From a virus, in the UHGV virus genome UHGV-1334481: a stretch of DNA of 57,107 nucleotides; one strand, given 5' to 3'. Below are positions 13,538 through 47,506 of the stretch, piece by piece; positions within the stretch are counted from its first letter, which is position 1; each line of letters starts with the position of its first letter. The translations under genes and the position numbers were made by a program. Under the pieces are notes generated by a model, which saw only the letters and a list, made by a program, of their open reading frames with translations, was not told the origin of the DNA and did no database searches.

Positions 13538-14995
13538 TTATGCTGGTGATAAAAAGGTAGAAAGTAATACCCATTCGCCGTCTTTACGAACGTAAGCTTG
13601 GCCATCTTTTGGAGCTTCAGGAATATAACCTGCTTCTTGTAGATCTTGAACGCTACTCTGTAAAGAGGATATATTTTCTTTAACTGTATTTACTTCCTGT
13701 GTGACTGCCGCAATGTTAGTTTCATTCGTTTTTACAGAATTAGTTAATCCTCGTTCTTCAACAGTTGATCCGTCAGGATTATTTCCATTTATAAGTGAAG
13801 TAAGTTCAATAACTTGACCTTTAATTCCTGTTCTATTATTTCCTATTTCAACTTGTATATTTTGAACATTATTGTTTAAAACTGAAACTTCTCCTTCAAT
13901 CACTGAAACTTTATTTAATAGAGATCCAGAAGGAGACGGTTGTCCTCCGCTGGAGTCAGTTCCAACAATTTGATTTAACCATGAAACATTTGCTCTTAAA
14001 CCAGACGAAGTGTTTTCACCGACAATTCCATTTAAAGACTCAATAGAAGTTGTGTGATTTTTAATTTTTCCTTTAATACTAGAAGGAATATCATCTGAAC
14101 CTATAGAAGTTTCAATAGCCGTTAAGCGCTGTTTAACACCTTCACTCTGATTTAATTCATTATTAATAGCTTCAATGCTACTTTTGTTATTATTAATTTC
14201 TGTTATTATAGAAACATTTTCTGGGTATCCAATAGAAGATTTAATTTCTGCTATATCAGAATTTATTAAAGTTTGTTTATCATCTATGGTGTTTAATCTA
14301 TTATAAATATTTGGCCCAAAATCTACCGGTTTATTACCAAGTTCATCGCGTAATTTACCAACTTCAACAGTTAATGATCCTACGTCAGATTCAGTAAATT
14401 TAGTTTCTAATTCGCTTAAACGAATGCCTTGTGAAGATAATAACGTACTATTTGTTATTATTCTGTGTTTCATTCCTGTGCTAGCATTACCAACAACAGG
14501 AAGACCGTTAATGTCTTGACCAGAATATTGTCCTAATTCCTGTTTAATCCACAATAAATCATTTCTAATTGTTCTGTAAACAGAGTTTTCTTCATCATTA
14601 AATGGACCTATATCAGCAATAATTTTGTCAACTGTATTATTAGTTCCAGTTAATATATCAGTGTGTTCATTAGTAAGTGTCTTTAAATTTGATATGTCAT
14701 TTTTATTAACACTGATCTGTGCTAGTGCTTCTATATCTCCTGATACATCTAAAACTCCTTGAATTGTTTTAATATCTTTCTGCGATGTTTCAATGGCAGT
14801 TTTAAGAATTCCCACATTTTCATCAAGAACTTCGACATTTTTAAACACGGAAACAATAGGTCTATTCATTGATCCATCATTTCCATACTTAGTACTAGCT
14901 CCTAATATTTCTTCACCATTTTTAATCCATGAAATACGCTCTTGACCTTCGTCAGGAGCGCTATCAACAAAAGGTAACTCTTTTAATTCAATCAT
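13538..14995 (-). CDS. wac: fibritin (whisker antigen control) wac
   Basis: 485-aa ORF, coiled-coil-like composition, between genes 12 and 13 as in T4 (T4 wac about 487 aa). Confidence 0.88.
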
Positions 14996-15004
14996 TTGTA
15001 ATCC

Positions 15005-16555
15005 TTAGTAATGAATTTTAATAATATAGTTTAATGATATATTCCATGGTCTAGTTTCATAACCAATTAATCCTTCACGATTAAGTGTACCATGAGCATC
15101 TCTCGGTCCACCTAATTCAAATCCATCATTAGTGAAGTATGAAGCATTATCCCAGTCGGAATATTTTCTAGTTCCAAGATATCCTTGATAAACTGACGCG
15201 CCAAATGGGCCTTCACTTCTGTTATATTCTCCCCAACCACCGGCGTGTTTATGGTATGACATTTGTTGTGCCTGGACACCACCAACATGCATTCCGTCAC
15301 ATCCTACACCAAGTCTATCCTTTCCATAACCATCTTGTCCTCGTTGATTTAAAATATGACCGCCAGTACCGGCTCCTCTGACGAAAAGACCTCGCATATC
15401 AGGAATACCAGGATTATTCCAATCACCACCAAATCTTGATCCAACTACGTTTCTATAATCAGGAAATTGGTCACCTGACACGGTTCCACCGTGACACATA
15501 ATCCAACCTGGAGGTGCTGAATCACCCGCAAACATCATAATAGTTCCAACTGGAACCCTTTCGGACGCATATCTTTCAGTGGCAACAGGTTGATCGCCAT
15601 TTTTCCACATTCCACCGCGTGACCAAATTCCATTTGCTGTAAGATGGTCTAAATTTAAAGAACCATTAATAGTTTGTCCACCACGAGTATTAATTACATC
15701 TGCGTTCCATGCTAATGCTCCAGAGCTATCACCTTCAGGGGCAATACCGGCTTGCGTCGTTAATTTAACTACTCCACGCATAGAACCGGTAGCTCCTCGA
15801 CCATTTAGTGTTTCACCTGTTACTGCAACACCGCCCAAATTATTATTAATTTCAGTCTGCGTTCCTAGGCGTATAACACCCTTATATTCATGTGTTGCAA
15901 CAGAATTCATAAAGGTATACGGGGAAATTGCATATCCTTCGCGGAGAGTTCCTTGACGAATTTGTGCAACAGTAGATAATTGAACTACTCCTCTCACCGA
16001 TTCTGTTGCAGTGTCTTCTGAAGGAGCTATTTGCGAAATTAATTTTATTGCAAGTTTTTGGGTTTTTAGCGGAGTCATCGCAGTAGTATCATCAACTCCA
16101 GCCAAAGCTGCAGGTGTAGATGATATTTTAATAACCCCGTTTGATGACTCAGACGAATATCTATTTTTGAACACATCGTCAGTGTGGTATTTCAGTTTTT
16201 GTGGTGTTATTGATGAATTATTATCTGAGCCTTTTAATGTTTCTTTATTTGTTGAATAACGCGTTAAACCATATTTAGTTTCAGTAGCATTTGGATACAA
16301 TAATCTTGTTGCTAATGTAGCTGGTGTAACGATTTTAGAATTATTAGTTCCATCTAAAACCTCTTGTTCTGACGCAATCATTGCTATTCCTTTAACTTCC
16401 ATAGTTGCATCAGGAATACCATTTACGCCGATATTACTTATTTTTGATAATGCAGACTGTACTGTCGTAACAGTGCCAGGAAAATTCGATCCTACTGGAT
16501 CGAATTTAACATATTTTGATTCATTTGATACGTGCTGATATGTATTGTTACTCAT
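15005..16555 (-). CDS. 12: short tail fiber protein gp12
   Basis: 516-aa ORF in gp12 position (T4 gp12 is 527 aa from memory; length differs). Confidence 0.88.
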
Positions 16556-17229
16556 GCTACTCTCTCAAAATAATAAAATACTGTAGGTTGTGTGTGACTA
16601 TCTAGCGTAACAGTTTGCGCACCTAATAATTGCCAAGTTCCATACCCAGGTTTAGAAGGAGAAATTATTTCCTGTTTGAAAGTAATTCCTTTATCAGAGT
16701 ATTGTTCTAAGATATGTTCTTGGTTATCTAAATACTTAACTTGTATTTTATTTCCTATGGTAGGATGGTCTTCAAATGAATCAATTGCAATAAATTTTAC
16801 AACCATTTCCTGTAGAGCTATTCTAACGGCACTAGTAAATTCAATTGAAGTCATTCCATTAGTAGCTTTAACTGGAATACCAAACATGTTAACAATAACT
16901 GGGTCACCTGATTTGACTGAAGTATCAGTAACAGTTCCTTCAAATGACCAATAGTCGGTTTGTTGCACGCCAGTAGGAGATACGCCGCTTATATTAACTA
17001 ATACAGCTCCAACCGGTTGCTCTGCCATATTTCTAACGTCATTGATAGCAGATTCTACATTTGAATCATAAAAACCTTTTGATATTTGTGAAATTGTTAC
17101 AGCGCCTACTGGCTGATTATTCATAATCGAAATATCATTTTTCTTAGTTCTAAAACCAAGAAAATCCGCTAAGCGGGAAATAACTCCCGCTTTATTATTA
17201 AGTAAACTCATTATGCAATCCTTATCCAA
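16552..17229 (-). CDS. 11: baseplate wedge protein gp11
   Basis: 225-aa ORF overlapping gene 12 start by 4 nt; synteny with T4 gp11. Confidence 0.88.
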
Positions 17230-19016
17230 CGGTATACAGTAATAGACGGTTGAATATTACTAATATTAGTAGGAGGAGTATGTGAAGAGTTTGTTGTTGC
17301 ATAGTCTTCACGATATTTTGTATATATAGGACCAGTTTCATCTGGGTCATATTGACAACCTCCAATAATAACTGATCCATTTTCATCTTCAATTAAAACT
17401 CTTTCATCAGTTTTAGTCGCAGGAAGATTTGCGTTTTCAAGCGTTACTGATGTTGTTCCAACTGTTCCACCGGCAGTGTGTGAAGGATTTCCACTAGAAT
17501 CTAAATCATTATTGTTTAAAGCAAAGTTTGGATCCGTAACATCATCATTCCATCCTACTAAAACTTGTCCTTTACCAAATAATTTCCATGAACCAAACCC
17601 CATATAAGTCACCGGATTATTTGGGTTTATAGCATTTTCATAAATTGAACCTACAGGATAAATGCTATCGAAAATAGATGATATTGAATTATACGTTCTA
17701 GTATAAGAATCAACTTTTTCAACATTTGGCCAACCGATTTTATCAAAATCCGTTAAGGCTACATCACCAGTAACTTCGGTAGATGATCCTTTACTAACAT
17801 AACGGTCATCCGTTAATTCAATGATGTCATCTTTTTCTAAAAGAGTTCCTAAATCATTATTGAACCACGTTATAACGATTATATCGCCTGATTCAAATTT
17901 TCTATCAAATAAAAGACTTGTAGGTTTTCCATCTTCATATTCTATAGAATAATCTGTATTTGATTCTTTCCATTCGCCACCAAGAGATATACATCCTTCT
18001 TGCGTATCTGAATTAGCGCCTTCGCACAAAAACAGAGGATACCCAGCTGTTCCAGCCTGTTGCTGTAAAATTCCATTAAAACGAACCTCAAGAGAATTAG
18101 GATTAATGGGTTCGCCAGGAATTAATCCAAACGCAGAGAATGGAATTGATTTCATCGCCGATAAATCAGTAACATAAATGCTTCCTTCTAAAGAAGTCTT
18201 TGATGTTAGTTTTGAATCTAGTACTTTTATTTGGCGTCTTGTATATGAACTTCTCCATTGTGATACACCATCCATAAATGTTTCAATTTGAACAGTGTCA
18301 CCAATATTACAAGGCTGTCTTAACCTAATATTAAATCCATCAAGAGGAATTAATTCTCCTTCATTTTCCCCTGGAGAGCCAAAGTCGCTGTTTTCACTAA
18401 ATACATCGCCGTAATATAATTCGTTACCGCGATGTTTTACTCTTATGTTATTAACATTATAACTAGTTCCACGGAAAATATCTAAAAAGTCAGTTTGTCC
18501 TTGAACTTCTACTAAAAATTCTTTGCGAGCTACATTACTAATATCTGAACTAATAATTTTATCAATTTGTTTGTTTTTGACATACTCCCAACGTCCTGGA
18601 GCGCAATAAACAAGCTCTAAATCACTAAATTGAATATTAATTTCAACTGACGATGACGACCCTTTAATTGTATCCCCAGAAGCAGCTACTAAAGTAACTG
18701 GATTAATGTTCCATGTTGCAAATACATCCCTAGCTCTAATTACTTTATTATAATCATTAACAGTTCCTTTAGGAAGTTGTAAAGTTACTCTTCCAGAAGA
18801 GGTATTAATAGCGTATGATTTTCCCCACTTAGCTTTTAATGTTTGACCGGATGAAGCATTATAAGTTTTCCAGGCACCGGCTGAATATGGAACATCTCCA
18901 TCGCCAAGTTCATAATAAAGTTCATCAAAGTTTTCATTTATTTTTATACCACCTTTACGCAGGTAGTCACCGGTACCATCATCAACAACATTACCGATAT
19001 TAATATTTTGTTTCAT
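17211..19016 (-). CDS. 10: baseplate wedge protein gp10
   Basis: 601-aa ORF; length and synteny match T4 gp10 (602 aa). Confidence 0.9.

Positions 19017-32119: not shown

Positions 32120-32120
<1 letters not shown>
31890..32120 (+). CDS. 57A: tail fiber assembly chaperone gp57A
   Basis: 76-aa ORF MSEQTIEQKLSAEIVTLKSRILDTQDQ...; matches T4 gp57A. Confidence 0.85.
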
Positions 32121-32576
<456 letters not shown>

Positions 32577-40501: not shown

Positions 40502-40986
40502 TTTTAAAAACTCGCTGGTATGATTTAGATGATGGGGACGATGGCATTTCAGTTGATAGAGTTGACTGGAGCGGCTGTTCTGAAGATACAAAGAAACGAT
40601 TAATTAGGGAGTTTAGAATGGGATATCAAGCAGTTAAGCCATCTACTGTAACAGATGATAAATTCGTGTGTATTCATAATGGTCGTGCTAAGTTAACGAA
40701 TGCTGAATGGTTCACAGATAAGATTATGATTCTGTGGTATATCATTAGTCTTCCTGTGTCATCATTCGTATTTTACTTTTTTATAAAAAATCCAATGGAC
40801 AGAATAGGAGATTGGATTCTTTTAACCATACTTGTTAATATTTTTACAGCATCAATATTATCAGGAATATGGTACATGTTCATTGAAATGCCATGGCGGA
40901 TGCGCAGACAACAAAAGATTTTTGATGAAAAGAAATATGCTCAAAATTTAAATAATTTTATCACTGAATGCAGGAAATTAAAATGA
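40498..40986 (+). CDS. small membrane protein (member of a tandem trio)
   Basis: 162 aa, hydrophobic segments; ATGA start/stop overlap with neighbours. Confidence 0.6.
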   Translation: MILKTRWYDLDDGDDGISVDRVDWSGCSEDTKKRLIREFRMGYQAVKPSTVTDDKFVCIHNGRAKLTNAEWFTDKIMILWYIISLPVSSFVFYFFIKNPMDRIGDWILLTILVNIFTASILSGIWYMFIEMPWRMRRQQKIFDEKKYAQNLNNFITECRKLK

Positions 40987-41423
40987 AAACACTATCAGCT
41001 GGTATTATCTTTATGACAGAAGATAAAGATTTATTTATGGGACGAGTTACTGGTTCTCGTAAACATGGAATGATGGCACATCGCTGGGATATTCCAAAGG
41101 GGCGTGTAGAAAGTTCTGATTTAAGCGCACTAGATGCAGCACGAAGAGAATGCTTAGAAGAGACTGGCTTTAGCAATTATAATCCAGACCTTCTAGAAGA
41201 CTTAGGTGTATTTAAATATTCTAGTAATAAAGACTTACAGTTATTTTATTATACGATTCCAGTAGAGCATGAGATGTTTAGAAATTGCCATTGCGAGTCT
41301 TATTTTGAAAATAAAGATGGCGTTATGATTCCAGAGATGGATGCTTTTGCTCTTATTCCTCGTACTCAGTGGCAATATGTGATGGGCCCTTCACTTTACC
41401 GAATAATGAACAGCCTCTTTTAA
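40983..41423 (+). CDS. nudE: Nudix hydrolase NudE (e.1)
   Basis: Nudix box GRVESSDLSALDAARRECLEETGF; start at ATG 40983 coupled to the upstream stop; about 147 aa (T4 e.1 is 151 aa). Confidence 0.8.
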   Translation: MKTLSAGIIFMTEDKDLFMGRVTGSRKHGMMAHRWDIPKGRVESSDLSALDAARRECLEETGFSNYNPDLLEDLGVFKYSSNKDLQLFYYTIPVEHEMFRNCHCESYFENKDGVMIPEMDAFALIPRTQWQYVMGPSLYRIMNSLF

Positions 41424-42013: not shown

Positions 42014-42430
42014 ATGACTCGTATTAATTTGACTTTAGTATCTGAACTTGCTGATCAACATTTAATCGCAGAATACCGCGAATTGCCACGTGTTTTTGGT
42101 ATAGTTCGTAAACATGTAGAAAATGGTAAGCGGGTTAAAGATTTTAAAATATCTTCTGAGTTTATTTTAGGTTCTGGTCATGTTACGTTCTTTTATGATA
42201 AGTTAGAATTTTTGCGAAAGCGTCAATCAGACATTATAGCGGAATGCTTAAAACGTGGGTTTAGTATAAAAGATACTGAAGTTCCTGACATCAGCGATAT
42301 TCCAGCAGAATGGAAAAATGATTATAACCCATGCAAATCAGCTATTAAGTTGAGTCAACAACGACTCGATGAAAAAATTTTAATGAAGCCACACTGGTAT
42401 AAATACTACGGCAAAAATATTTACATTTAA
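42014..42430 (+). CDS. denV: endonuclease V (pyrimidine dimer DNA glycosylase) DenV
   Basis: 138 aa, [29 protein letters not shown]...; matches T4 endo V length and sequence (memory). Confidence 0.93.
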
Positions 42431-42439
42431 AGGAAACAC

Positions 42440-42913
42440 ATGAAAACATATCAAGAATTTATCACTGAAGCAGCTATTAATTCTCAAATTATCGCTGAAT
42501 CTTTTACTGATCTTTTGAAATTTAAAAAAGGTCAAAAAATCACTGCTGTATTGGATGATGGTACAGAAGTTGAGATGGATGTACAGGGATATAATTATGC
42601 AGTAGATGGAAAACTGTATAATAAATCTCACGCTAAATTTGATTCATTTGACGACTTTGTTAATACGGTTGAAGATGAAAAAACTCGTAGATCCATTGCA
42701 ACTGGCGACGCTAAGGTTCTTATGGCACACGGTCATGAACGTATCCGCGCCAAACAGAATAAAATGGGTGAAGATAATTTCGCATTAGTTGGTTATCAAT
42801 CTGGTAAACAAACTTATGGTTATCAGCGTACTGCTACCATGTATAACAAAAATGGTAAAATCGCTTTCGTGAATAGCAAAGGTTCTATTCAGTACGTCAA
42901 ATCATTCAAATAA
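42440..42913 (+). CDS. internal-protein-like protein with CTS
   Basis: 157 aa, N-terminus MKTYQEFITEAAI (CTS-like); adjacent to denV. Confidence 0.6.
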   Translation: MKTYQEFITEAAINSQIIAESFTDLLKFKKGQKITAVLDDGTEVEMDVQGYNYAVDGKLYNKSHAKFDSFDDFVNTVEDEKTRRSIATGDAKVLMAHGHERIRAKQNKMGEDNFALVGYQSGKQTYGYQRTATMYNKNGKIAFVNSKGSIQYVKSFK

Positions 42914-43938: not shown

Positions 43939-44301
43939 ATGAAAGCATATCAAATTCTTGAAGGCACACATAAAGGTACTATTTATTTTGAAGATGGTAT
44001 TCAAGCACGAATTATTGTTTCTAAAACCTTTAAAGAGGATTCTTTTGTAGACCCAGAAATTTTCTACGGTTTGCACACCCGTGAAATTGAAATTGAACCA
44101 CAACCTACAGTTAAAATTGAAGGTGGTCAACACCTGAACGTTAACGTTCTGCGTCGTGAAACTCTGGAAGATGCAGTTAAGCATCCGGAAAAATATCCGC
44201 AGCTGACCATCCGTGTATCCGGTTATGCAGTTCGCTTTAACTCTCTGACTCCGGAACAGCAGCGCGACGTTATCGCTCGTACCTTTACTGAGAGCTTGTA
44301 A
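43939..44301 (+). CDS. grcA: autonomous glycyl radical cofactor GrcA/YfiD-like protein (T4 Y06I-type)
   Basis: C-terminal half matches E. coli GrcA from memory, including [29 protein letters not shown]; that half has host-like GC-rich codons. Confidence 0.85.
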
Positions 44302-45062: not shown

Positions 45063-45090
45063 TTTACTTTTCCTCTTGACTGTGGTATAA
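45063..45090 (+). promoter_or_regulatory. T4-type early promoter
   Basis: -35 gtttac and -10 tataat, followed by AAGAGGAG RBS. Confidence 0.55.
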
Positions 45091-45118
45091 TTTTTCTATC
45101 AGTTAAGAGGAGAATAAC

Positions 45119-45587: not shown

Positions 45588-46133
45588 ATGAGAAAAGCAC
45601 TACTCGCTGGTCTATTGGCCATTTCAATGATGGCACATAGCTCCGAGCATACTTTCAGTAATGTCCAACTCGATAACATGCGTTACGCGTATCAATTCGG
45701 GGAACAATTTTCTAAGGATGGAAAATATAAAACACACAAAAATATCCACAAGAGCGGATTGGGTCATATAATGGCTGCTATTTTATGGCAAGAAAGCTCT
45801 GCCGGAGTTAATTTAAAATCTAAACCAAAGCATCATGCCTATGGAATGTTCCAAAATTATTTGCCTACTATGCGAGCAAGAGTTAAGGAACTTGGTTATA
45901 ATATGACCGATGCTGAAATAAAAAGAATGTTGAATAAACGGTCCAATTCAGCTTCCTGGGCGTACATTGAACTTTCTTATTGGTTAAATATACATAAGGG
46001 CGATATAAGAAAGGCGATATCCTCTTATAATTCGGGATGGAATGTTAAAGCAGGTTCTAAATATGCTTCTGAAGTCCTAGAAAAGGCTAATTACCTTAAA
46101 AATAATAAACTTTTGGAAATAGTAAATGACTAA
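45588..46133 (+). CDS. secreted lytic-transglycosylase-like (SLT domain) protein
   Basis: N-terminal signal peptide MRKALLAGLLAISMMAHS; SLT-like motifs WQESSAG, YGMFQN, SYNSGWN. Confidence 0.5.
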   Translation: MRKALLAGLLAISMMAHSSEHTFSNVQLDNMRYAYQFGEQFSKDGKYKTHKNIHKSGLGHIMAAILWQESSAGVNLKSKPKHHAYGMFQNYLPTMRARVKELGYNMTDAEIKRMLNKRSNSASWAYIELSYWLNIHKGDIRKAISSYNSGWNVKAGSKYASEVLEKANYLKNNKLLEIVND

Positions 46134-46473
46134 AATTTTGGTTTTATGTATAGGATTAATTTCATTTTCTGCTTCTGCGTTAGCAGATACATCATATACT
46201 GAAATTAGAGAGTATGTAAACCGTACTGCCGCGGATTATTGTGGGAAAAATAAAGCATGCCAAGCTGAATTTGCGCAGAAATTAATATATGCATATAAAG
46301 ACGGAGAAAGAGATAAATCAAGCAGATACAAAAATGATACATTGTTAAAACGATATGCTAAAAAGTGGAATACCTTAGAATGTTCAGTTGCGGAGGAGAA
46401 AGATAAAGCCGCTTGTCATTCAATGGTTGACCGTTTAGTAGATTCTTATAATCGAGGATTGAGTACTAGATGA
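46126..46473 (+). CDS. secreted Cys-containing protein
   Basis: Signal peptide MTKILVLCIGLISFSASALA; 4 Cys in the mature part. Confidence 0.55.
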   Translation: MTKILVLCIGLISFSASALADTSYTEIREYVNRTAADYCGKNKACQAEFAQKLIYAYKDGERDKSSRYKNDTLLKRYAKKWNTLECSVAEEKDKAACHSMVDRLVDSYNRGLSTR

Positions 46474-46949
46474 TTGTAAAATATATCAAGGGCGATATTG
46501 TCGCCCTATTTCTTCAAGGTAATATTATTGCGCACGGGTGCAATTGCTTCCACACAATGGGCTCTGGCGTAGCGGGTCAATTAGCAAGAGCCTATCCCAA
46601 AATTTTAGAAATAGATAAAACCACTACCGAGTACGGTTCTCGTGATAAATTAGGCGATATGTCTATTGTTTTTAAACATAGTCCTACGGGATTTGGTATA
46701 TGCTATAACCTGTATACACAATACGAACCGGGTCCTAATCTTGATTATGGTGCTTTAGTAAACTGCATGATAGAATTAAATCTACAGGCAGAAACCCTTT
46801 TGTTTAAACCAGTAATTTACATTCCACGTATAGGTTGCGGTATTGCTGGCGGCGATTGGGATAAGGTTTCTAAATTAATCGACATGTTTACTCCTGATAT
46901 TGATTTAATAGTGGTGGATTATGAAAGTACATTACCCGCATCCGTTTGA
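46470..46949 (+). CDS. macro-domain-like protein (putative ADP-ribose binding/hydrolase)
   Basis: Motifs GDIV..., HGCNCFHTMGSGVAGQL and IPRIGCGIAGGDW resemble macro-domain signatures; by eye only. Confidence 0.45.
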   Translation: MIVKYIKGDIVALFLQGNIIAHGCNCFHTMGSGVAGQLARAYPKILEIDKTTTEYGSRDKLGDMSIVFKHSPTGFGICYNLYTQYEPGPNLDYGALVNCMIELNLQAETLLFKPVIYIPRIGCGIAGGDWDKVSKLIDMFTPDIDLIVVDYESTLPASV

Positions 46950-47133
46950 TCCTAAAAACAAAGTGGAAATTATTCGTCAATGGGAACGCATTTGCCGTAC
47001 TAAATGCCCAATTAATAGTCCACATGGTGTAGATAAAGACTATATTGGAACATTCGTTGAATATACCTTTATTGATAAGAAAGGTCGTAAACAACACGTA
47101 GAAGAATATTGTTTAAAGGTTACATGGTTATGA
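46921..47133 (+). CDS. hypothetical protein
   Basis: 70-aa ORF overlapping the upstream 3' end. Confidence 0.45.
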   Translation: MKVHYPHPFDPKNKVEIIRQWERICRTKCPINSPHGVDKDYIGTFVEYTFIDKKGRKQHVEEYCLKVTWL

Positions 47134-47336
47134 GCCAAACAAGTATTCTTAAAAATGCCCACTGCGAAAAGTGTGAATGGCCAGTTGTTTTTGCTTTATG
47201 TAATGATGAAATGGCTTGTGATTTCGATTATTGGTGCTATTGTTCTAATAAAGGATGCATCAATCATAAAGGTGAAGGATTTTATTCAGGATTTTATCCT
47301 TATCCCGATTTCGTTAAAGAAGGTAAACCGAAATGA
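47130..47336 (+). CDS. Cys-rich small protein (putative zinc-binding)
   Basis: Start at ATG 47130 (ATGA overlap); CxxC pairs CEKC...CNDEMAC...CYCSNKGC. Confidence 0.45.
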   Translation: MSQTSILKNAHCEKCEWPVVFALCNDEMACDFDYWCYCSNKGCINHKGEGFYSGFYPYPDFVKEGKPK

Positions 47337-47506
47337 ATAGTTTTGAGTTACAATATGAAGTGTTACGTGAGCTTGATAATTTAATTGAACTCGCTGTCAA
47401 TAAAGGTTTTGCCATTGGAATCGGTCAAAAAGATACTGGTCATTTAACTATGGAAATATTTAAGCAAAAGCGAATTATTTTAAAACTCCTGGAAATTAAT
47501 ATATGA
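47333..47506 (+). CDS. small hypothetical protein (57 aa)
   Basis: Hand-found ORF below the tool cutoff; ATGA-coupled at both ends. Confidence 0.4.
   Translation: MNSFELQYEVLRELDNLIELAVNKGFAIGIGQKDTGHLTMEIFKQKRIILKLLEINI

Follow-up and report, generated by a model that had tools for sequence, protein, structure and literature searches.

The open reading frame (ORF) at 46470-46949 (+) in the 57,107-nucleotide stretch of viral DNA analysed here, called the window below, is tk.4/adfM, from a phage of the T4 type (Tequatrovirus), a gene that is already annotated and whose role has recently been described. Its 159-aa product belongs to the ALC1/TARG1-like class of macrodomains and, with a probability of about 0.75, works as an early, stand-alone macrodomain ADP-ribosyl glycohydrolase that erases DarT2 thymidine marks from phage DNA. 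No new kind of system is revealed; what is added to the known gene is a Gln-type active site and an inter-genus allele swap, both modest, and purifying selection.

The tk.4 locus and its macrodomain product

In the ORF listing of the window, the 159-aa frame starts with ATG and lies exactly where the preliminary description had placed it. The three motifs quoted there are all present in the translation, namely G8-D9-I10, H22-L38 (HGCNCFHTMGSGVAGQL) and I118-W130 (IPRIGCGIAGGDW), and the location in an early accessory region holds as well, the gene being part of the T4-type phage block regB-vs.1-vs-tk.4-tk.3-tk. The gene and its neighbours are as follows.

46470-46949 (+): tk.4/adfM coding sequence, a single-domain macrodomain protein of 159 aa (ORF, Pfam Macro match, synteny with T4 tk.4, 58% amino acid identity, AlphaFold2 model)
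46126-46473 (+): vs, the valyl-tRNA synthetase modifier, upstream neighbour (ORF coordinates; 99% identical to T4 Vs)
46921-47133 (+): tk.3, downstream neighbour (ORF coordinates, DNA alignments)

The stop codon of vs overlaps the start of tk.4 (ATGA), which suggests translational coupling. At the other end tk.3 overlaps tk.4 by 29 nt, compared with 4 nt in T4, because a 13-nt difference extends Tk.4 by the tail ...ESTLPASV. A strong match to a sigma70-like promoter was returned by a consensus scan at 45063-45091, in front of regB and upstream of tk.4. The 2.8 kb around the gene match 831 phage records, most of them Escherichia/Shigella Tequatrovirus, with an identity of up to 99.8%. In a record annotated with T4 names the genes run regB, vs.1, vs, tk.4, tk.3, two small ORFs, tk.2 and tk, the present ORF being tk.4; T4 has the same gene order, and its RefSeq entry labels tk.4 'phosphatase; contains A1pp phosphatase motif'. 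The ORF thus occupies the orthologous position X of regB-vs.1-vs-X-tk.3...tk in a Tevenvirinae genome, and its product is homologous to T4 Tk.4 over the full length (58% identity over 155 aa, gap-free, E 1e-70).

In other records the gene is named 'macro domain protein', 'Poa1p-like family protein' or 'RNase III inhibitor'. Using tblastn, homologues were found in 2,790 of 50,697 phage records, from T4-like phages of many hosts and from Vibrio, Pseudomonas, Acinetobacter and Bacillus phages. This wide spread agrees with a phage survey in which macro domains were the commonest ADP-ribose-processing domain (PMC9503650).

Resemblance to macro domains had been seen by eye, and it goes well beyond chance. 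In Pfam-A the ORF product has one match, Macro (PF01661), with an E-value of 1.3e-7 and 32 bits, above the gathering score of 22; the match spans residues 22-136 of the protein and positions 2-117 of the 118-position model. PHROG 335 (phrog_335, labelled 'phosphatase') matches the ORF at 1e-71. The top matches of a PDB sequence search were BT1257 (4e-10), yeast Poa1p, SCO6735, M. tuberculosis DarG and human TARG1, and a 35-member family profile sharpened the PDB matches to between 5e-19 and 8e-12. The AlphaFold2 model built on the family alignment is confident (mean pLDDT 93.1, pTM 0.88) and predicts three alpha/beta/alpha layers around a central mixed sheet, an arrangement that superposes on solved macrodomains; a pLDDT below 50 is confined to residues 157-159, in a low-confidence C-terminal tail. 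Foldseek with this model returned the same structural class, SCO6735 included. Two of the checks proposed in the preliminary description, the Pfam search and the structure prediction with structural comparison, therefore gave a macro match and a macrodomain fold, and the contrary outcome named there, no profile match and an unrelated fold, was looked for and not encountered.

The conserved Asn and the two Gly-rich ADP-ribose-binding loops are present (N25, G31/G33 and G122/G124/G127/G128) and align to the corresponding elements of BT1257 and TARG1. The nearest neighbours in structure and in sequence belong to the ALC1/TARG1-like class (TARG1, DarG, SCO6735, BT1257 and Poa1p), clearly ahead of the MacroD, viral and PARG classes.

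Conserved residues and the Gln-type active site

The conserved elements of the protein map to the following positions.

46533-46547 (+): H22-G23-C24-N25-C26 motif, in which N25 is the conserved macrodomain Asn (H22, G23, N25 and C26 invariant)
46557-46577 (+): Gly-rich loop 1, M30-G36 (MGSGVAG), aligned to the BT1257/TARG1 loop (G33 and A35 invariant; M30 and G31 more than 90% conserved)
46707-46721 (+): N80-L-Y-T-Q84, at the end of the central strand (profile alignment to BT1257 and TARG1)
46824-46859 (+): phosphate-binding loop 2, P119-W130 (PRIGCGIAGGDW; alignment to TARG1 'PriGcGldrlqW'; P119 and W130 invariant)

Conservation was counted over 118 cluster representatives, 38-100% identical. 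H22, G23, N25, C26, G33, A35, D49, N80, Y82, Q84, P119 and W130 are invariant in 118/118, and G122 and G124 are Gly in 117, the remaining sequence being gapped there. The window allele shares all the family-invariant residues listed for T4 Tk.4 (H22, G23, N25, C26, G33, Q84, P119, G122, G124 and W130). Asp49 (46614-46616), invariant in all 118 representatives, lies in or beside an alignment gap, has no TARG1 counterpart and is a family-specific residue.

N25 aligns with N23 of PhiKZ gp104 (also named AdfM) in BLASTP and corresponds to Asn27 of SCO6735, which is essential (PMC9411070). Loop 1 is predicted, from macrodomain structures, to contact the diphosphate and the distal ribose of ADP-ribose. 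At the end of the central strand, 'nlYtq' aligns on BT1257 'nmigq' and TARG1 'ylitk' in the profile alignment; Q84 stands where TARG1 (K84) and DarG (K80) have their catalytic Lys, and Gln85, at the equivalent position of SCO6735, is essential there (PMC9411070). This equivalence of Gln and Lys is based on our alignments to TARG1 and BT1257 together with the structural alignment published in PMC9411070, SCO6735 (5e3b) and DarG (5m3i/5m31) lying outside the best five PDB alignments, and the residue-level comparison is accordingly one with TARG1 and BT1257.

In loop 2, P-R-I-G-C-G-I-A126-G-G-D-W aligns on P-R-I-G-C-G-L-D125-R-L-Q-W of TARG1. The K84/D125 dyad of TARG1 is Q84/A126 in the window allele, which has neither this Lys/Asp dyad nor the catalytic Lys of DarG. 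The loop after Q84 (Y85-Y93) aligns gap-free to TARG1 and has no Lys, and BT1257 carries a 6-residue insertion here; SCO6735 has a longer, Lys-bearing mobile loop after its Gln, whereas the Tk.4 loop is short, of TARG1 length. Of the SCO6735-type sequence features, the Gln at the Lys position, the Asn and the loop-2 Gly are found (Q84, N25 and G124) and the extended Lys loop is not. Judged from these alignments, the Tk.4 family joins a putative SCO6735-type catalytic position to a short-loop scaffold.

A divergent allele and its cassette

The features that delimit the divergent part of the gene are the following.

46489-46507 (+): 8-bp GC-rich, terminator-like hairpin (AGGGCGATATTGTCGCCCT) inside codons 7-13 of tk.4 (terminator-like scan, folding)
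46508-46975 (+), approximate: divergent allele cassette, comprising the tk.4 body and the first ~50 nt of tk.3 (two-way and four-way DNA alignments, per-gene identities)

Most proteins of the window are 95-100% identical to those of T4, the genes flanking tk.4 reaching ~99%, and Tk.4, at 58%, is among the most diverged, together with the receptor-binding gp11 and gp12, internal proteins, tk.2 and trna.3. At the DNA level vs.1 and vs are 97-99% identical to T4 and the match continues through the first 38 nt of tk.4, where identity drops abruptly to ~60%, a level kept over the remainder of the gene until it rises again within tk.3. Compared with Gaprivervirus P896, Tk.4 is 95% identical in amino acids and 88% in nucleotides, against 44-74% for RegB, Vs.1, Vs, Tk.3 and Tk; Dhakavirus IME08 is intermediate (Tk.4 75%). 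In the four-way alignment the window tracks T4 to the end of the hairpin, P896 to ~46975, and then T4 again. This pattern indicates the replacement of a sharp-edged cassette of ~460 bp between phage genera, and the swap is old, since dS against the P896 allele is 0.78. At this dS the dN/dS ratio is 0.035, therefore tk.4 is a selected coding gene, and the window allele is under strong purifying selection.

The hairpin (dG -12.9 kcal/mol, z -2.9) and the T-rich run that follows it lie within the first 40 nt of tk.4, where the hairpin marks the upstream boundary of the swapped cassette. It is kept at synonymous sites in the T4, P896 and IME08 alleles (Tequatrovirus, Gaprivervirus and Dhakavirus), the sole change being in the loop; it is absent from the Klebsiella phage allele examined, which restricts it to the coliphage alleles compared here. 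A terminator is annotated at this place in some GenBank records, and the hairpin may serve as an attenuator, another RNA element or a recombination junction.

Approximately 315 GenBank phage records carry the window-type allele (DNA match over at least 80% of the length). The T4-type allele is found in 221 records at 95% identity or more, and a further 159 are at 80-90% of T4's. In loop 2 the window sequence IGCGIAGGDW is the family consensus, and IGAGIGKGNW of T4 is unusual, with K127 in 3 of the 118 representatives. We raise as a tentative and rather doubtful proposal that the window-type and T4-type alleles of Tequatrovirus differ in function, being tuned to different DarT2 variants, substrates or toxin binding, and are exchanged as the ~460-bp cassette at the conserved hairpin. 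If this were true, adfM would be a host-range-like hypervariable anti-defence locus.

Several other loci of the window depart from T4. T4 tk.1 is absent and replaced at 47109-47506 by two small ORFs of 75 and 57 aa (RB32ORF111c/110c), of which the 75-aa one is Cys-rich (CEKCEW...CNDEMACDFDYWCYCSNKGCINH), a composition that suggests a small zinc-binding protein; tk.2 is 54% identical to that of T4. At sites including 13541-19016 and 42014-42649, diverged proteins are gp10 (85% identical to T4), gp11 (66%), gp12 (63%), wac (78%), denV (78%), ipII (33%) and trna.3 (64%). For ipI, ipIII, e.7, 5.3 and the homing-endonuclease genes segB, segC and mobD of T4, no protein match was found in the window, and the match of nrdC.10 is limited to the C-terminal 85 residues. 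The anti-CBASS gene 57B (acb1), at 32120-32576, has a one-base insertion near 32204 with respect to T4 (GGAAGTTCTTCCAGCGC versus GGAAGAACTT-CAGCGC), which frameshifts the first ~26 codons off the rest and leaves a 131-aa, TTG-started ORF. None of the 560 phage records matching this region reaches 99% identity, and IMG/VR does not contain the exact 30-mer; either the insertion is an error of sequencing or the gene has been inactivated in this particular strain. The product of vs.6 (43939-44301) is a GrcA/YfiD-like autonomous glycyl-radical cofactor (...RVSGYAVRF...), with 98% identity to T4 Vs.6.

Function of AdfM and comparison with known systems

DarTG systems halt phage replication through DNA ADP-ribosylation. 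That a phage macro domain might reverse DarT-type marks on DNA, as the preliminary description put forward, is supported, and has already been published for the T4 orthologue. In the HIDEN-SEQ preprint of November 2025, a T4 transposon library was grown on DarTG2-expressing E. coli and tk.4 was the sole significant hit; a clean T4 tk.4 knockout was sensitised to DarTG2, the gene was dispensable on plain K-12, and its authors, on the basis of a predicted structural similarity to Mtb DarG, renamed it adfM, for anti-DarT factor macrodomain (10.1101/2025.11.20.689424). Removal of ADP-ribose from DNA by T4 Tk.4 is a proposal in that work, worded as 'seems likely' (10.1101/2025.11.20.689424), and our literature search on 'tk.4' and 'AdfM' turned up no biochemical assay of a protein of the Tk.4 type. 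That DarTG2 resistance needs the gene is thus known for T4 Tk.4, and we infer the same role for the 58%-identical window allele. T4 also encodes AdfN (30.3), a NADAR enzyme that erases the guanine marks of DarT1 and gives no protection against DarTG2 (PMC11825919).

Related macrodomains have been studied in vitro. The PhiKZ macrodomain gp104, independently named 'AdfM' in Cell Reports in 2026, strips DarT2-made ADP-ribose from an oligonucleotide, with an activity that is reduced by N23A, and rescues DarT2 toxicity (PMC13309987). SCO6735 removes ADP-ribose linked to thymidine from DNA; its Q85A/E and N27S variants have lost this activity almost or altogether, and for the cleavage a water-mediated mechanism, positioned by the Gln and the backbone, was proposed (PMC9411070).

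Considering these data, AdfM, made early in infection, would act once host DarTG2 releases DarT2, which ADP-ribosylates thymidines of single-stranded phage DNA and blocks replication. It would grip the ADP-ribose with both Gly-rich loops and hydrolyse the N-glycosidic ribose-thymine bond, restoring replicable DNA and freeing ADP-ribose. Catalysis would probably be of the SCO6735 type, Asn25 holding Gln84, Gln84 positioning the distal ribose and a backbone-activated water attacking; the Lys-dependent chemistry of DarG and TARG1 is probably not used. The window also contains nudE (40968-41420), a Nudix hydrolase 97% identical to that of T4, described in the T4 record as active on ADP-ribose, and it is only an idea that NudE could dispose of the ADP-ribose freed by the macrodomain.

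The window allele presumably acts by hydrolysis. Against this stands that 42% of its positions differ from T4 Tk.4, loop 2 included (CGIAGGD compared with AGIGKGN in T4), and that it lacks the DarG Lys, the TARG1 Lys/Asp dyad and the Lys-rich mobile loop of SCO6735, a loop which has been tied to DNA processing (PMC9411070). The N-terminal half, moreover, also resembles Poa1p, an ADP-ribose-1''-phosphate phosphatase. Protection could come mainly from binding and blocking DarT2, as an antitoxin mimic, with hydrolysis secondary or absent. Such a mode of action would fit the observation that catalytically dead SCO6735 Q85A, DarG K80A and TARG1 K84A still inhibit DarT in vitro, SCO6735 the most (PMC9411070), and that the ICP1 factor AdfB appears to act through direct interaction (PMC11481870). 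The rapid allele turnover at tk.4 is also what is expected of an arms-race protein-protein interface. Nevertheless, the residues invariant in the 118 representatives are those of the ADP-ribose site (N25, Q84 and the Gly loops) and not a surface patch, and the DarT-binding C-terminal domain of DarG has no counterpart here, so that we regard protection by binding as improbable.

A soluble substrate in place of DNA, such as ADP-ribose-1''-phosphate (as for Poa1p), O-acetyl-ADP-ribose or an ADP-ribose-derived immune signal, is implied by the database names and suggested by the Poa1p similarity, but no phenotype supports it and we consider it very improbable. Reversal of the marks of Alt, ModA and ModB, another idea of the preliminary description, is unlikely because these enzymes modify arginine, and macrodomains are not known to cleave the arginine-ADP-ribose linkage. 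The removal of any other ADP-ribosylation, whether these marks, toxin-made RNA ADP-ribosylation or the marks of a different DarT2 variant, is the least probable alternative: the TARG1 class is broad in its substrates, SCO6735 acting on protein and DNA (PMC9411070), and one genus carries a pair of deeply diverged, co-circulating alleles whose loop 2 sequences differ, but genetics gives no support to such a role, tk.4 is dispensable on plain K-12, and loop 2 aside, both alleles have identical active-site residues.

With erasure of DarT2 marks as the preferred function, T-even phages would have a matched pair of 'erasers', the NADAR enzyme AdfN acting on the guanine marks of DarT1 and the macrodomain AdfM on the thymine marks of DarT2. 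In GenBank, the majority of T4-like phages have an adfM allele quite unlike the one tested in T4, and the gene travels as a cassette between phage genera; both points are useful for host-range prediction and for the choice of therapeutic phages, and the natural allele pair and the Gln-type active site are offered to biochemists for comparison.

Among known systems, DarG itself gave the best NCBIfam match, the antitoxin equivalog NF048014, scoring 27.7 bits where the cut-off is 250, and was the only PADLOC match, at 27.5 bits, through its N-terminal macro part (144 of 329 positions). DarG, as known from the DarG2 antitoxins of T. aquaticus and M. tuberculosis, differs in its additional C-terminal DarT-binding domain and in having Lys where the Tk.4 family has Gln. 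In the 159-aa single-domain protein no such C-terminal domain was found, the catalytic Lys (K80 of DarG) is absent, the family-invariant Gln84 standing there, and the neighbours are vs and tk.3, with no adjacent darT. Membership in the DarG2 antitoxins is ruled out on these grounds, and the protein is filed as working like the macrodomain of DarG, not as a member of the DarG family. PhiKZ gp104 has, as read from its sequence, a PTK motif like DarG, with Lys in place of the Gln of the Tk.4 family, and shows only marginal BLASTP similarity to the window protein; because of this motif and this near lack of similarity, the two proteins named AdfM fall into separate branches of the class.

SCO6735 of Streptomyces coelicolor and BT1257 of Bacteroides share with the window protein the Gln replacing the catalytic Lys, the conserved Asn and the loop Gly residues, and are likewise encoded by stand-alone genes not beside darT. 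BT1257 is the best match in both sequence and structure, although identity is only ~26%, and these two bacterial proteins serve host genome protection, whereas the window protein is phage-encoded and counter-defensive. A bacterial relative from Pelagimonas (40% identity) is also stand-alone among unrelated neighbours, and darT was looked for and not found nearby. TARG1/OARD1 and Poa1p are eukaryotic housekeeping enzymes, and Poa1p acts on a small molecule. T4 Tk.4, that is AdfM (bioRxiv 10.1101/2025.11.20.689424), is a single macro domain at the same vs/tk.3 locus; it has 155 aa compared with the 159 aa of the window allele, whose C-terminus is 4 residues longer.
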